64,000 nucleotides of DNA from Bacteroidia bacterium (GTDB lineage Bacteria; Bacteroidota; Bacteroidia; M30B66): positions 86,626 to 150,625 of the forward strand of contig CBDIHM010000003.1 of assembly GCA_965279035.1 (NCBI GenBank). The letters are read 5' to 3'. The notes beneath the pieces are model-generated. The model was not told the DNA's origin and made no database searches. It saw nothing but the letters and a program-made list of their open reading frames with translations. The position numbers and the translations under genes are program-made. Of this stretch, positions 55,406 to 64,000 are shown in pieces (the first letter of the stretch is position 1; each line of letters opens with the position of its first letter).

Positions 55406-58400
55406 ATGTCGGTGCGATTGGTCTCACAAGATACGGGTGCTCATCTTGAGCTTGGCTCGGGGGATACTTTCTCGCTGGGACGGAAAGCAAGTCTCGGCAT
55501 CAGTGCAAAGAATGTGAGCAGGGATCATTGCACGGTCACGACAGGTGTCGGCTCCGGGCATCTTGTACGGCCAGTCGTCTCTGCAAACAAGAAAGTTTAC
55601 ATTCTTCGTCACGGCGAAGCCGCAACGCTGCATGCGGGGGAATTGTCCGAGGTGCTAGATTTTTTAGCTGTAATGGATCTCTGTATGAAGACTGATTTAT
55701 GCAAAAAAAGCGCTTCAGAGGTTAATCGAATGCCCTTCCTGATGCAGCTGCTTCATGGGGACACACTGTATCTCACCCAGGAAGGGAGTCAATTCAAGCA
55801 CGGTTTCTTTGTCGATATTCCCGGGTCACGGCTGCGTGACCAAGAGGTAGTTGCATGCCCACCTTGCCCTTGCCCAGATCACTTCTAGGTGGAGTGCATG
55901 TGAGGCAAGAAGAGAGCTTCATGGTGCCTTCCCTGTCCCTTAGGCCGCGATTGGAGCAGATGCAGTTTTGCTTGATGGATGAATGCCGTGTCAGATCGCG
56001 TCGTGGCACTTATACTGATTATCATGTTGCCGTAGTGCTAATCCTGGTTTCCTGTTGGTAGGCTGGCAATGTGCACCAACCTAAGTATCCCCCTCTCGGA
56101 CAATCACCGCATTCCAAGAGGCAGCGAAGTTCTGGCCAGGGCAGGGAGGACCACCCAGCCCCCAAAGCCACTTCTGCTGGGCCAAAGGCACAAAGTGATG
56201 TGCCCTGCTCAGTGAACACCACAGACGTATTCTGTGGCCTCACCTTTGTCTTTTGGACGACACAATTCATGACTCCTCTCATGATCAGGTGCAGTATGCT
56301 TGCTGCCTGACCTCTCACTTCCCCATAGGGAGCCTATAGCACAGCAATGATCAGATGGACGACCGCAACAGATTCCCAATAAATATATTTCTGCTCCTAG
56401 AGCAAAGCAGGCTGGTGCGGAAGTGACAGAGGAGCTGCTCATTAGAACCACCACGCACGTGGTTGCAAGCAGAGACTTTGATGCAGACGAGGCTGCCAGG
56501 AAGCTACAAGTTGTGGAGATGCATGCAACCACAGAGTGCTATGAGGTACGGGTGGACCTTCAATGCAGCAGGGCTGCTGTGTTACTTTCCTGAACAGTAC
56601 AGGCATGCCAGTGCTGGAAAACACTCATGCAATCCCAGACATGCAGGTATCATATGACGGCGGCAAGCTTTTGAGGCTGCCAAAGGAGGTTCATTTTGTC
56701 ACGCCAGAATATGTGAGCGAATGCCTCGCGCATGGTCAACTGCAGCCCGAGAGGGAGTTTTTGATAGACATAGTGCGCATGGCTGTTCTGGCCACTGGAC
56801 AACAGGTATCAGTTGCTGCTCTACTGTGAATTTTAGCACATGCGATGCTTTCACTGGAACTGCAAAGACCTGATGTGGCTGGCTGGATACTGTCAAGCTT
56901 AGCATGTATCTGGCCAGGATGTGGGCATCGCAGATCTGGATGTCACCATGGCAGGCAGCGTGCATAGACGAGGAGCGCATCATGATCAATCAACTTCGCA
57001 GGAGGCCGGCACCGAGGCAAGTCCTAACCATTCAACATGCCAGCTGCTCTCGGCACAGAATCTCGTTGGAGGTTTCTAGTGCATGCACTTCGAGGGAGTC
57101 TCACCGGCCGTCGCCCACATACTGCAAGTCTGCTGTGTCTGTCGCTCAGTCGCATGCAACAATTATCCTGTGCTGAAAGCAATGTTCTGCAGGCTGCGCG
57201 CAAGAGCGACAGCAGGCATGGAGGGGATCTGAGGGAGCCCAGCCGGATACATGCGGAACATCATGGCGGTGGAGAAATGTCGCGGGATGTGTGGGAGCAG
57301 TGGCAGAGGGCTGGGTTTGTGCCTGCACCTGCAGCGACCCTGAATAGCAAGCATGGCAGCAAGACACGTGATGCTGCCCCGACCAGTCATCCTACAAGCA
57401 AAGATGTGGATGTCACAGAGAGAGATCAGGGGGCATCTGACGTCAGCAAGCCCTCCTTGAACAGCAAGGTCATCGCAGAGTCTCCTGGTGGACTGGTGCC
57501 CCATATGGACACTTCCTCCACAGTCACAGAGCGGGGATCATGTGGAGTGTGGGACGTGGCCTATGACAAGAGTGCAGCAGAGGAGACTGTCAGGAAGCTG
57601 GGCCTGCACTGGCACCGACAGGAGGTGGAAAGTGTCAAGCATGCTGCAGCTGACGGCAGTGGGGACCGCACTTCAGGACCTGGGACTACTGTGAACGGTG
57701 GGATTCCAGGGCATAATGGAAGCCAGGAATTGGCATCCTCTGCGCTGAACAATTCCTGTGCCCACACGGCATGCTCGGCAAAGGTGACCATTTTCAAATA
57801 CTGCATGCAGCGTTTACACTAGATTAAGCTTTGACTTTTGTTTGTTGTTGTATACTGAGTATACTGAGTATACTGAGTATACTGACATAGTATACTGAGC
57901 TTGGGAAAGAAAGCCTCACAGCGAGCATGCCTCCCGACTTGCGCAGGAGTTTTGCATAGTGGATCAACTCGAGGAAATTGAAAGGAACTACCGGAAAGGG
58001 AGAGATCAGTTCAAGATAAAGGTGCCCTGCGCACCACATGTTTACAATGTGAGAAACTTTGTGCAGGAGCCAAGGAAGGCTGCCAGACCCACTGACTCCT
58101 AGCTCCTGTACAGGCCATTCAGCGCGCAATCAAGGCAGTGGTGGAGTCGACCAGTGCTCTGGTGACAGCAGAAGACTGTGAGAAGCTAGGCATCGGAGAG
58201 AAGTCCATCGAGAAACTGCAGGAAATTGTGAGCACGGGAGAGTACCGCCGCAATCAAATCATGGCGCAAGACCCTCATCATCGTGCCATCTCTTTGGTGA
58301 GACAATTGTTGGCTGCTGGCCCCTTAATAATTCCTTGCACTGACCATGTTCCCCTCACAGTGCAATAGGAACAGGAGTGGGCTGCTCATTCATTGTCTGC

Positions 58401-60057
58401 TGGCCCCTTATTGATATCTTGCCCTGATCATGTTTGCCGCACAAAGGAGTAGGAATAGGAGTTGGCTGCTCACTCACTGGTGTGCAGTTCATGGAGGTGT
58501 GGGGCACTGGTGAAGCCACTGCAGAGCGCTGGTACCGGGATGGCTGCCGCTCACTGGAGGATGTGCAAGGCCGCTCTGACTTGAGCATGCAGCAGGTGGG
58601 TATTTTGATTGGGGCCGAGTCTGACCTTGAAATTGGACCGAGATTTCTCAACATTCTCATTCGTACAAAGGCACCGCCCATTGTCATGCGCTCACAGGCA
58701 TTGGCAGCCATCGTGGCATGTCATGTGAACACTCCATTTGCTGGGCCAACGAAACGTCTTTTTGGCATTGACTGACCTGTTGTGTGCCAGAGGACGGGCC
58801 TGAAGTACTTTGAGGACTTCAAGCAGCGCATCCCTCGGTCCGAGGTTGCTGCCATGGGCGCCATCGTGTGCGATGCGGCTGAGGAAGTGCTTGACTGTTC
58901 CAATTTGCCAGATGGCGACCTGCTGTTCTGCAGCGTTTTGGGAAGGTGCTCTCTCCTGTCTTTTGCTGACAACTCCATTTGCAGGGAGACTGCCTAAGTG
59001 GCATGGAGTCCTTTGATCTTGTCAAGTCAGGGAGTACTTTTTCATATTCAAGCGTTTCATAACAGGGCTTTCTGGGGTGTGAACAGCTACACGCGAGGCA
59101 AGCCGTTGACAGGCGATGTGGACATGCTCATTGCACCTCCTCCTAGCTGCGGCGAGATTGACAGCAGGCAGGCACTGCATGCCATCTGCAAGTGTCTCCA
59201 GAAGCGGGTGCGTCTTCCTGCAAGAAACAACACATCCCTCTCTTGTAAATTTGCACATGGGCACTTTCAGCGTGCTACTTCCTTGCAGCATTTGCACATT
59301 AAGATGACTGTGCTAAACTTAAGTTCTGCGGGTGCTATATCAGGGCCTTCTCCTGGACGACATGGCAAGCACTGCCCCTGCTGCCAGGGGGGATGGTGCC
59401 GCTACCTTCATGGGTGTGGCTCGCCACACAACATCCCCCTGCGCCCGGCGCGTGGACATCAAATTCTATCCCCGCAGGTAGAGATTGGACTGCGTCTGTT
59501 GCTGGTAAAAGCAAAGTCTGCGTCAGTGTATCAGGAACAGCCCATGGTGACACCCCAGCACAAGGTTCAGGTCGCATCCAAATGTGTTGTGCTGTTGCTA
59601 TGCAGGGTCCTGCCCTTTGCCATCATGCACTTCACAGGCAGCGGCGCCTTCTCAAGAGCGCTGCGATACTGGGCACGGTCGCGCGCCAATGAGGCACGAA
59701 GGTTTCAGCCGAGTGCGAATGGCTTCAAGCTAAGCGACTACGCATTAGTGCCCATCCAAAGCAAGGAGCCTACCCGGCAGGCGTCCAATTACCACAATGC
59801 TGAAGTACGATCCATTTCCTGCCTGATGTCATGTGCACCACATTGTATACTTTGCTGATGTCAACAAGTGAAGTGCTCAGATGGGGCACATGCTGTTACT
59901 GTCACCAAAAGTGTTCATGGTTGAGTCAATTTGTTTTTATGAATTACAGGTGGAGCTGGGTCCATCACTGGACTGCAACTGTGAAGGCGAAATATTTCGA
60001 GCTCTTGGCCTGGATTATGTCCCACCGCACATGAGATACTTTCATAATTTTGAATGA
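55406..60057 (+). CDS. POLL: X-family DNA polymerase (Pol lambda-like) with N-terminal FHA-like and BRCT domains
   Basis: FHA-like FSLGRKASLGISAKNVSRDHC; BRCT VFCGLTFVF...THVVA...VTPEYVSECL; HhH GIGEKSIEKLQEI and VWGTGEATAERWY; GSYTRGKPLTGDVDMLI; RRVDIK; HFTGSGAFSRALR; IFRALGLDYVPP. Confidence 0.88.
57851..57899. repeat. Intronic 9-bp minisatellite (tatactgag)n
   Basis: Four tandem copies plus one interrupted copy; adjacent units create the palindrome agtatact. Confidence 0.85.
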
Positions 60058-60270
60058 AATACGTGTTGGCATTGAGCGCACATGTGTACATCTGTACAGC
60101 TTTGTGCATGCAGCTGTTCAAATTGGAATTCATACGGTGTAAGTGTTGGTACATTGAGTTCAGTAATCCAAAATTTAGACCATCGCTTATCATATTCTGG
60201 TACTGCCGCATAAAGTGTCTACACTGACCGCAGAGTGCCGGGATGCGCATAGTGCACCCGGATGGGGTAA

Positions 60271-60423
60271 TTTTTTTTTTTTTTTTTTTTTAAGGAGAAC
60301 CCCTCTATTACAGGCATGAGGGTAGCGAACTTCCCAACACACACATAATAGGATATTTAGGGAAACCTGACCGAGTTTGGGGCACGCAAAACACTCCCGC
60401 AGGAGGATAGGGCGATACCCAAG
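60271..60423 (-). mobile_element. Retroposon-like structured 3' end with genomic poly(A), left copy
   Basis: T21 at 60271-60291. On the minus strand TGTAA lies 16 nt before the tail. About 85% identical by hand alignment over the ~94-nt core to 62808-62900. Confidence 0.7.
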
Positions 60424-61426
60424 GAACATCAAAGCAATGGGAAACGGCATGGTCACAATGGCAATCGTGTCCAGACAATCAAGGACAATCAATCATCGTC
60501 GATGGAATGTAGGAAGGTAACAATAGGGCCTAACGCGATGACTAAGTCGGGCAGTCAATAACGCCCACTGGTTTGCGGGAAGCTAATCTCTTCAAAGTCA
60601 GTGACAAAGCATGGCAAGCTTCATACAACACACCAACCCAGCAGTGGGTTGGGATAGGCAGGAGGTACCATGTTCTCAGTCCTAGACACCCGCTCAATAT
60701 GAACACACATGAGAGTTATGAATGCACAGGAACAATGAGGAATGCACCGGATGACACAATGTGAGGGGAAGGACACGTGATGGACACACTTGATGAAATG
60801 ATTCTAATGGGGTTGGAGACAAGAAAACACAGGAATTTGCTACCAGGACCCTGGGGAGAATGGGCTTCATTGAATGGGTGGCAGCGTCAAAGCTCTCCAG
60901 CGCGCCGGTGAAGAGGTGCACAGGTTGAGGGGCGCACGACTGAGCCGCCCGACCGGGAGAACCCGGTACATGAGAGCCGGCGGAGCATGTCTGTGGGGGC
61001 GAGGCCACAAGAACTGGTGGGTGAGGCCAGTGCCCCAGAAGGGAAAGGAAACCCCAGGGGCCATGCCCGGCCGTGCTCTCTGGGATCTTATCATGCAAGG
61101 ACACGGGCATAGAGTCATTCGGCTAGATTACACCCAGGCTTCCTTCCTGTCACACGCCCTCTAGATTGACCTGCACACGAAGATGTCACGTCAACACCCA
61201 TTCTGCAAACTAGCCATGTCATGTGTTAGAGCCAAAAATCCAAAAGGTGCAAAACTCGAGTCGTGGGCGGAAATCGGGGAGGTACTAGTGTTTTTCAGTG
61301 CTTTGTGGGGAATTGTGGAGTTGGGGACAGGCTGGCACGTGCCTTCTAGGTGCTGTGTGGATTGCAGCAGATCTTGCACGCTGAGAAAGGTGTTGTAAAG
61401 TTACTAAAAAACGAAAAACAGCAATT

Positions 61427-62942
61427 ATGGCGTTCGCTAGGGGCGACAAGGGGGTACGGCCACTGAAGTTGGGAGAGATCACGCACAGTTGGGGTGACGG
61501 AGCTCGCAGAGGGGATGTTCGGCAGGAGGTCCAGGCGCACTTGGCGGTGCAGAGGCCTTGGGTGTTATCGATGACAGAACAGGTACTTGTCATCCTCAAA
61601 GGTGGGCGTAGCAAGAAGATGGGGGAGGTGAAAAAGCGAAGTGCAGGGTTTGGTCGGATGCTTGAGCAGACGCGGACGGATATGGACGTTTGAATCGGAA
61701 AGAATTGCTGAGAGCATTGTAAAGTTGAAGGAGATCATTCATTTTGACGAAAAGGCCCTGGATGCTGACATGCGTGTGTGCAATGCAGAATGTGGCGGAG
61801 GCAAGAAAGTTCAAGGATTTCTGGAGGGCGAACCTGGGGCACGCAGCAGCGGCCGTGACGTCTTTCGTGAACGTGAACGTCATCAACGTGTCCGGGATGG
61901 CAGGTATGTCTGAAATTGTCAAGCATACAGATGTATAGATTTGGCAGTGAGAAGTGGAAAGCGACCGATACCAGACAAGCGAGTTGGAAAGCCCTGAGCT
62001 GGAGTGATTTATATGATAGGATGCAGAGAGGTGCATATGCAGAATTGACATGGTGGACGGAATTGCCATTGCAAAGAAGTGCCTGACTGACAGGTGGAAT
62101 GTGCTGGTGACTTGCAGGAAACTGCCTGCTGCATTGCACACTGCATGCAGCGACAAGCCTGGATGACGTCATGGGGCATCAATCCCGGTGACAGCCTGGA
62201 GATGCAGGCAGCGACCCTGAGATTCTGGTTCAAGTCGACATACGAGACGTTTCTGGGAGAAGCACAGGGCAGGGGCGACGCTGCCATGGCCGCAGAGTGT
62301 CTGCGGCTTGTGGAGAGCCTGCGTGGCAGCGAGCACCCGTACGAAGACATGGCGCACCTGATCAGCGAGCAGCTGCGCGCCGATGTGTACGTGGCGCGCG
62401 TGGAGGACGAGCGGCTGTTCACAGCCGAGCGCCACCGGCTGCACGCAGGTGAAAATGACAAACAGTGTTGAGCTGACATTAGAATACAATATACGAATCC
62501 GAACGCGATCCTGTTCTATCCCTGTCGGCCAACCGTATAAACGTGCCTTTCATGTCTGTTCCACCACTGGTTGCCCGCACATCCATAATTGCCTGCCAGC
62601 GATTGATGATTGCCTGCTTTGCTGTGACCCCTGCCTCCAGCTGCAAGCCCTAGGCTTGCCCCGTGGGTCCTCCAACGTCACCTCAGCGGTGTTGCGTTGC
62701 CGGCGGGCTGGAGTGCGCCTCTGGGGATGAGGTTACCCTCTGGTGCTTGGGACATGTCCATCGCTAGGAGTTCCCTTTCTGTGGTATGCCTTCATGCTTG
62801 CGCTTCTCTTAGGTATCGCATTATCCTCCTGCGGGAGTGCTCTGCGTGCCCCAACTCTGACAGGTTTCCCCAAATATCCTATTGCATGCGTGCTGGGAAG
62901 CGTGCGATTGGCACCTATGTAATAGCGGGGGCTCCCCCTTAA
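61427..62942 (+). CDS. Intron-containing orphan gene (possibly decayed) between the two poly(A) modules; model tentative
   Basis: Coding-like exons with GT-AG ends: MAFARGDKG...SMTEQ (61427-61582), NVAEARKFKDFWRANLG... (61789-61903), ...GINPGDSLEMQAATLRFWFKSTYE...RHRLHA (62151-62448). One frameshift in the G-run 62173-62176 is needed. No recognisable domain. Confidence 0.4.
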
Positions 62943-62957
62943 AAAAAAAAAAAAAAA
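62808..62957 (+). mobile_element. Retroposon-like structured 3' end with genomic poly(A), right copy
   Basis: A17 at 62941-62957; TGTAA at 62918-62922; terminal GC hairpin gggg-gctc-cccc; inverted homolog of 60271-60423. Confidence 0.7.
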
Positions 62958-64000
62958 TCCAGTAGGGAGCCCAGACGCGGAGAATATTTGAACTGTGCAA
63001 CAGTAGTAGAACAGACTATGGTAGAAGAAGAGGACATGAAGCGGTGATGAACTGTGAGCTCGCGATAGAAGAGTGCCGGGGTGTGTTGCGTAGAGACCGG
63101 GGACTTGGCGGATCGATGCGTGTGGATGTTTCTGCACAGCGGGCACTTCCAGGTCATTGTGTGCCGCTCGCAATAGCGACTGGTGTTGAGCCCCCGGACC
63201 TCGGCTGATGGCATCGATCACTACTATATATTACCAGATGGTGAGCACTCACTGAGGCATGCATGCCATGGCATGCTGGGGCGCAATGTTGTGTTGGAGA
63301 CCTGAAATTCTGCCGGAGCGCATATGCAGAGATGGGGTCTCTTGTGTGACTGACACGCATGTGTGTATCAGTTGACAGCAAAAGCAAGCATGGCGGTGCC
63401 AAGCGGGGTGCTGATGACAGGCGCACCCGCCGCAGGCAGTGCCGCGGGATCGGGAGTCAATCATGCAGGGGGGCTGGCGGGCCCGGGCAGCAACGGGCGT
63501 GCAGGTGTGGTGACTAAGTACTCGCGTTTTCAGTAAGACAGCAATGGGTGTCACTGGAAGCTTCAGGAAATGATGGTGAAACTGCCATATGGTTTTGCAT
63601 GATCGATCACAGGGCGCCGGAGGGACTGAGTCCTTGCGTTTTCACAGGGTGCATGATCCTGTAACAAAGGGTTGACGAGGTGAAGGCATTGCCCCTTCCC
63701 AGTGGTGCACTCCAGCATCATATTGAGTGGCAATTGAGGCACTCACAGGTCAAAGCCCAAGCTATCACAGGCAGCACTACCCAGAGGCATCAGCAGCAGG
63801 GGAGCGAGTGCGGCAACTGCAGCATTTCGCTCGCACCACTGGAGGCCGCCAAGGCACCTAGAATGCATGGCACATCGAACGAATTCTACCTTCGCTTTTG
63901 GCCTGCGCTGGGGCAGGAGAGGCCTTCAGCAGCGGTGCCAGTCCAGCGCTGTGCCATCGCTGCAGTAGGGTCGCGCCACGCTCCTCTATAATTATAACTT

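Follow-up and report, generated by a model that had tools for sequence, protein, structure and literature searches.

Does a segment of DNA that starts with a run of T, ends with a run of A and carries an intron-containing gene between inverted repeats represent one mobile element? This question is raised by positions 60271–62957 of a 64,000-base stretch of DNA, called here the window. A preliminary description of this 2.7-kb unit proposed a non-autonomous, double-ended retroelement with a cargo gene, and named two independent 5'-truncated insertions around a host gene as the simpler reading. We conclude that the unit very probably consists of two independently inserted, 5'-truncated, poly(A)-tailed retroposon fragments of one family that face apart, rather than of one element. 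It lies downstream of a family X DNA polymerase gene, in a region that has taken up separate insertions, and this arrangement is an ordinary one.

The host of the window is a Coccomyxa-like green alga, a soil alga. The G+C content of the window is approximately 52%, and a passage in PMC3446292 gives 53% for Coccomyxa subellipsoidea C-169. A copy of the retroposon family also underlies a predicted protein from Coccomyxa sp. Obi. Runs that contain the window stretch include biocrust, soil, and mine-drainage metagenomes. For the comparison with positions 58000–64000 of the window, contigs of two DNA runs (X7 and X12) and two RNA runs (X16, which is from a relative designated organism D, and X19) were used, all of them Logan contigs. 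Contig depth serves as the measure of copy number. Uncovered parts of the window, such as 63025–63225 in X7 and the part beyond 63025 in the RNA runs, were excluded as evidence. A metagenome scan queried with exon 3 of the gene yielded three loci, L001, L002 (11 kb), and L003 (8.2 kb). A scan with a core 18-mer returned one locus in viral_contigs and nine in genome_contigs, all ten of which are chance matches of 18–26 nt in bacterial or viral records.

Tails, arms and the polyadenylation signal

The two copies and the arms at their 3' ends are located as follows.

60271..61084, minus strand: left retroposon copy, 5'-truncated, 814 nt including the tail, low-copy subfamily (empty site in X16; longer copies in X7 and X12)
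60292..60423, minus strand: left arm, 3' module common to both copies, UGUAA at a distance of 16 nt from the tail (BLASTN, repeat search, MAFFT, folding)
62498..62957, plus strand: right retroposon copy, 5'-truncated, 443 nt plus A17, 460 nt in all, high-copy subfamily (depth; family contigs differ before 62498)
62808..62940, plus strand: right arm, 3' module common to both copies, UGUAA at a distance of 18 nt from the tail (BLASTN, repeat search, MAFFT, folding)

The tails T21 (60271–60291) and A17 (62941–62957) are the sole A or T runs of at least 10 in the whole window, and their position at the two ends is therefore not due to chance. In BLASTN, 60275–60423 and 62808–62957 align as inverted copies with 79.5% identity (E 4e-32); the alignment has 151 columns, tails included, and no third copy of the arm was returned from the 64-kb window. 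The repeat search divides the arms into blocks of 52 nt (83%), 47 nt (89%), and 40 nt (78%), and MAFFT agrees. The diverged inverted arms of approximately 130 nt that had been described are thus real, yet the full repeat copies are longer, measuring 814 nt (left) and 460 nt (right).

The right arm carries TGTAA at 62918–62922, 18 nt ahead of A17. The left arm carries the complement TTACA at 60308–60312, 16 nt from T21. According to a passage in PMC1868727, the frequency of UGUAA in chlorophytes, trebouxiophytes among them, is highest near position −17 relative to the cleavage site. Since UGUAA is found at the usual chlorophyte spacing together with the tails, both ends look like the 3' ends of polyadenylated RNA that were copied into DNA. 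The preliminary description was right in this respect, and its positions for the tails and for the signal were also borne out.

The flanks of the 2.7-kb unit (...GGGGTAA and TCCAGTA...) do not agree, and the unit thus lacks a target-site duplication (TSD), as had been noted. Enzyme domains were searched with Pfam in the 43 stop-to-stop open reading frames (ORFs) of at least 40 amino acids that lie in or overlap 60271–62957. None of the 43 ORFs has a domain above threshold, in agreement with the earlier view that no reverse transcriptase, transposase, or recombinase is recognizable; one sub-threshold chance match to TP2 (E 0.029) was obtained.

Copy number, truncation and the empty site

In a double-ended composite retroelement, two inverted 3' modules would mobilize the 2.4-kb interior and its gene as a unit. 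The arms are indeed inverted, tailed at both ends and supplied with UGUAA at both ends, and the lack of a TSD around the unit also fits. Such an element would show arms and interior at the same copy number, but this is not the case. Across 62422–63024, the contig depth is 438–832 in X7, 31–132 in X12, 134–283 in X16, and 27–59 in X19, and at 62623–62823 it is 831.6, 131.9, 283.1, and 59.3, respectively; the flanks in the DNA runs are at approximately 3–5. The interior (61417–62421) has a depth of 1.2–6.9 in X7 and 1.2–4.3 in X12. The right-type subfamily is present at tens to approximately 200 times the single-copy depth, whereas the interior is at single-copy depth, so that the arm exceeds the interior by up to approximately 200-fold. 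The left copy has a depth of 9.4 in X7 and 13.5 in X12 against approximately 3–5 in the flanks, which suggests a few copies of the left-type subfamily per genome.

Both copies are fragments of longer elements. X7 record 21 (2639 nt, DNA) matches the left copy over 60304–61085 with 3 other letters and 1 gap, and X12 record 3 (3926 nt, DNA) matches it over 60559–61085 with 4 other letters and 1 gap. Past 61085, these two contigs continue with identical letters that are unlike the window, X12 for a further 3400 nt. Because the longer contigs diverge from the window here, 61085 is the 5' truncation point of a longer element of the size of a long interspersed nuclear element (LINE). The near-identity of the left copy to copies in other samples (3–4 letters in 527–782 nt) suggests a recent insertion. 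The ORF of the left copy (142 amino acids) matches just two low-complexity predicted proteins, P0001 and P0002. These two proteins overlie copies of the family and are without a Pfam domain, so that the reverse transcriptase of the element was not reached from this ORF.

Family contigs also differ from the window before 62498. X19 has 177 unlike letters there, and in an X7 contig of depth 575, the window sequence before 62498 is replaced by a block, on the opposite strand, that resembles 60651–60696 of the left copy. As the family contigs lack the window sequence before 62498, the right copy is 5'-truncated as well. The left-like block beside right-type sequence in X7 identifies the two copies as subfamilies of one family.

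It is possible, though not probable, that the arms belong to short interspersed nuclear elements (SINEs), that is, SINE-like non-autonomous elements with a LINE 3' tail, and not to truncated LINE copies. The X7 depth is nearly flat across 62498–62823 (approximately 700–830, allowing for bin edges), unlike that of randomly truncated LINEs, and a passage in PMC3446292 puts SINEs at 8.8% of the C-169 repeats. Left-type copies, however, extend at least 3.4 kb (X12 record 3), which is LINE-sized. Furthermore, Rfam found no RNA polymerase III-type head (tRNA, 5S, or 7SL) at E up to 1 in 59500–64000, where its sole match was RAGATH-25 at chance level (E 0.7). Such a head could simply be missing, since both copies are 5'-truncated.

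The left copy can be removed from the locus without the interior. X16 record 9 (3376 nt), an RNA contig from which all seven polymerase introns are removed, carries 59950–60259 at record positions 373–682 and 61085–61306 at 141–362. Just 10 letters lie between the two pieces, and they fit 60260–60269. This layout means that 60270–61084 is missing and that the 3' untranslated region (UTR) of the polymerase in the relative runs from approximately 60269 straight to 61085. The last exon and the 3' UTR run into 61085–61306 at one contig depth, 151.7. An empty site with exact element boundaries was found for the left copy only. An intron reading of the gap at 60270–61084 was rejected because its ends are not GT..AG and because the DNA family contigs also diverge at 61085. 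The proposal that the unit is present or absent as a whole therefore fails, as the left copy alone is absent from X16 while 61085–61306 is present there. Together with the depth mismatch, this makes the double-ended composite retroelement very improbable.

A single event of another kind is hardly more credible. Both ends of one break could each prime reverse transcription on the tail of a different element RNA (two-RNA twin priming), and the outward tails, the inward 5'-truncated ends, and the missing TSD would agree with it. L1 twin priming yields one tail, one TSD pair, and element sequence only. Its inversions resemble the present locus as head-to-head inverted LINE segments at one site, and differ from it in that two tails are found here and 1.4 kb of non-element DNA lies between the copies. 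Two-RNA twin priming would also leave element sequence only. In addition, 61085–61306 is directly joined to the left flank in the relative, and the repeat that we call segment U (described below) also lies between the copies.

Two independent insertions thus remain as the best explanation, and several points weigh against them. The left empty site is deduced from where the pieces of a single contig, from a single run, match the window, it does not appear in the table of joints, and positions 60260–60303 were masked in the contig comparison. No empty site for the right copy was found in X7, X12, X16, or X19. The TSD of the left copy is at most 1 nt (A), and that of the right copy is a doubtful AATCC that overlaps the tail. 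No reverse transcriptase was found in any family copy, and the copies may accordingly be either LINE fragments or SINE-like elements. Finally, a second family member within 2.7 kb would occur by chance in approximately 2% of cases, which also speaks for a double-ended element; this rough estimate assumes a uniform model with approximately 200 copies (from the X7 depth ratio) and approximately 49 Mb (from C-169, a different strain; PMC3446292), and takes no account of insertion preference, of the limited room between genes, or of the selection of this case in the preliminary description. The nearness of the two copies would reflect either chance or an insertion preference.

The following course of events is proposed for the two copies. 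Transcripts of the element would be cut and tailed at the UGUAA signal that they carry. An autonomous partner would supply the reverse transcriptase, which would use the poly(A) tail for priming at a nick in the target (target-primed reverse transcription), and an early stop of reverse transcription would leave a 5'-truncated copy. The left copy lies in antisense orientation inside the polymerase 3' UTR, and the right copy was inserted separately in sense orientation. The DNA between them comprises the rest of the host 3' UTR (61085–61262), segment U (61263–62357), and 140 nt that are also found in relatives (62358–62497).

The polymerase gene, segment U and the orphan gene

The sequence upstream of and between the copies is divided as follows.

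58000..60057, plus strand: family X (lambda/beta-like) DNA polymerase, 3' exons (Pfam and spliced RNA contigs)
60058..60270, plus strand: polymerase 3' UTR, first part up to the left insertion (X16 record 9 covers 59950–60259 and then continues)
61085..61262, plus strand: host sequence, continuation of the polymerase 3' UTR in the relative (X16 record 9)
61263..62357, plus strand: segment U, low-copy dispersed repeat of approximately 1.1 kb (L002, L003, and an X16 loose end at 61263)
61904..62117, plus strand: orphan-gene intron, GT..AG, confirmed (skipped in an X16 RNA contig of depth 3.7)
62358..62497, plus strand: window-type continuation of exon 3 (ORF open to 62471) plus 26 nt (P0003, P0007, X16 record 10)

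The polymerase gene has Pfam matches to DNA_pol_lambd_f (E 4.6e-13) and, on its last exon, to DNA_pol_B_thumb (E 2.4e-6), and its stop codon is at 60055–60057. Seven GT..AG introns (58000–59950) are spliced out in X16 RNA contigs, six of the seven also in X19. Part of the interior of the 2.7-kb unit is the 3' UTR of a host gene, which is a further argument against a cargo-bearing element. In this strain, the antisense retroposon copy breaks the polymerase 3' UTR 213 nt past the stop codon.

Other variation is seen around the end of this 3' UTR. The X16 polymerase transcript contig tracks the window to 61306, 44 nt inside segment U, and is followed by 140 unlike letters. X7 contigs near 61306 have a 9-nt insertion after 61301 and a 1-nt deletion at 61291 compared with the window, and the spot is accordingly variable. 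In X12, one diverged contig of depth 2.9, whose shorter side has 56 letters, passes from 60186 to 63692 across 9 other letters and skips 3505 nt, at boundaries unlike those of the arms. Since X12 also has interior contigs at depth 3–4, two variants may coexist there.

Of the orphan gene, segment U includes a putative 5' UTR, exon 1 (61428–61582), exon 2 (61789–61903), and the initial 240 nt of exon 3, which begins at 62118. L001 is identical to 61031–62355. L002 matches the window only at 61260–62357 (88.7%; L002 7631–8741), L003 equals the stretch 62301–62356 at its positions 1–56 and then diverges, and an X16 contig agrees with the window from 61263 on, with unlike sequence before it. Among related genomes, three different right flanks are seen, and no fewer than two other left flanks adjoin the segment at approximately 61263. 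These sharp ends and several different flanks indicate that segment U is a low-copy dispersed repeat.

The other copies of the interior also provide a direct comparison for the arms. Neither of the two copies with flanks (L002 and L003) has arms or an A/T run of at least 9 within the flanks inspected, which measure 7.6 kb (left) and 2.3 kb (right) for L002 and 8.1 kb (right) for L003. The sole exception, in L002, is a marginal arm match of 35 nt at a distance of 2 kb from the copy (86%, E 6e-4). These copies contradict the idea that the interior is repeatedly framed by an inverted pair of arms, a test of which had been suggested in the preliminary description. The fallback given in the preliminary description holds for the two independent 5'-truncated insertions, but it needs correction for the interior, which is not a plain single-copy host gene and instead combines the remainder of a 3' UTR with the dispersed segment U.

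Segment U is the one oddity left at this locus, being itself a dispersed repeat of no recognized kind. It has no terminal inverted repeats, TSD, poly(A) tail, or enzyme domain. Among the 76 ORFs of L002 and L003, Pfam found no transposon protein; one trypsin fragment and one sub-threshold chance match to Omega-toxin (E 0.0033) were obtained. Past the boundary of segment U, the frame in L003 remains open over another 109 codons. The segment could conceivably be an undescribed promoter-plus-exons module, mobile or dispersed by recombination, that fuses the orphan frame to new downstream sequence, but we consider this unlikely. The window-type continuation at 62358–62497 is retained in relatives (P0003, 94% identity; P0007, 93% over 98 amino acids).

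The orphan ORF is weakly expressed and spliced. The preliminary description had proposed coding-like exons bounded by GT-AG introns. The intron at 61904–62117 is spliced in X16, and the other proposed intron (61583–61788) lies where there is no RNA cover. The exon frame, by contrast, is broken in the window compared with relatives. Both X12 DNA and X16 RNA have 11 extra bases after 62166, which join the frame of exon 2 to the long ORF of exon 3, whereas in the window, L001, and L002, which are without these bases, the exon 2 frame stops at 62189–62191. P0007, from another metagenome, is the longer form and is 93% identical to the window ORF from the indel onward. The missing 11 bases thus leave the orphan ORF out of frame, or interrupted, in this genome. 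An in-frame TAG is present in the L002 copy as well. The exons of L002 and the window are 93–97% identical and the introns 89%, with two exon indels of 3 nt each. Substitutions number 12, 6, and 11 at codon positions 1, 2, and 3; they are not concentrated at third positions, and any constraint is therefore weak.

No homologue of exon 3 was found apart from copies of the gene. In phmmer against 1.84 billion representatives, it matched only P0003, which is its own copy, and P0004, a spurious TPR-like repeat protein. A word-index search among longer proteins gave no homologue of exon 3, and P0007 had no usable match in the protein atlas. An OTU-like cysteine protease was considered on the basis of a motif (G-N-C-L-L-H) at the exon 2/3 junction. 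This candidate was dropped, as no Pfam family was found with 62091–62471 at E≤1 or with P0007 at E≤0.01, in searches that did not include the spliced protein.

The orphan gene and the right copy might form one transcription unit, in which the copy supplies the 3' UTR and the UGUAA/poly(A) site. Such an exaptation would agree with independent insertion. The ORF is open to 62471 and followed by a stop codon at 62472–62474, the sense copy begins at 62498 with its UGUAA at 62918, and X16 record 10, an RNA contig, covers 62246–62466. However, no RNA contig bridges 62466–62498, and the gene is out of frame in this window. The RNA cover of the right copy is all at family depth and could derive from any copy. 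We regard a joint transcription unit as doubtful.

The retroposon family among known elements

The traits that place the two copies among retroposons are a tail with a host-type signal, a dispersed multi-copy family (depth up to 831.6 against approximately 4), 5' truncation, and, for the left copy, an empty site. The family is laid out as a common upstream block, a variable middle (227 nt vs 310 nt), and a common 3' module of approximately 130 nt. In several runs, family contigs change to other sequence at 62588, 62688, 62751, 62809, 62846, and 60385. These internal switch points suggest mosaic subfamilies with short common core blocks. One X16 contig has 11 A's after 62625, a position that no TGTAA precedes in the window; this contig may represent a variant of a subfamily or an insertion nested in another copy.

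Poly(A) tails and 5' truncation are typical of Zepp and other L1-like LINEs. A passage in PMC3446292 lists LINEs (Zepp), RTE elements, and SINEs as the main known repeats of C. subellipsoidea C-169, and near-identical, apparently young L1/Zepp copies in this strain are reported in a section of PMC5203782. The Zepp, RTE, and SINE retroposons of Coccomyxa and Chlorella share their genus-level host with the present copies. Zepp in C-169, however, forms one nested cluster per chromosome, while the present copies are single and lie beside genes. Among the entries listed in a literature search on named Coccomyxa SINEs, none was specific. The element is of a kind already known in the genus (LINE, RTE, or SINE) and is not placed here in a named family such as Zepp.

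Penelope-like and DIRS elements, named for comparison in the preliminary description, are similar to the present unit in that their termini are inverted or non-identical and introns can be retained. Both were rejected: no reverse transcriptase or GIY-YIG domain of a Penelope-like element, and no tyrosine recombinase or reverse transcriptase domain of a DIRS element, was found by Pfam in the 43 ORFs, and the termini here are independent insertions.

In 'stringent' LINE/SINE pairs, the two partners share a 3' stem-loop that is recognized by the LINE reverse transcriptase. The present subfamilies resemble such pairs, as they have different bodies and keep one 3' module of approximately 130 nt with the same two predicted hairpins. 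The first is a short CUCC/GGAG stem capped by a UGCG loop, and the second is a long stem with UGUAA in its 3' strand. Of the 31 predicted pairs, 22 are unchanged and 9 are kept with a one-sided change; none shows a two-sided change between the two sequences. When compared with shuffled sequences, the folds have z = −1.96 and +0.70, that is, only one arm folds better. With two sequences and no two-sided changes, the hairpin structure is a lead and is not demonstrated. The hairpin module may be the recognition site of the partner reverse transcriptase.

The finding itself is of little importance, since the locus is ordinary retroposon debris. It is, however, a worked example of how tailed inverted repeats around a gene can mimic a composite retroelement, and of how copy-number and empty-site tests separate the parts. 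A lineage-restricted, spliced orphan ORF on a duplicated segment may be of interest for work on gene birth and decay. For the Coccomyxa-like soil alga, a poly(A) retroposon family appears to have been recently active, and a DNA-repair polymerase gene has received one of its copies in the 3' UTR. The 3' module that is common to subfamilies with different bodies could help to find the partner reverse transcriptase.

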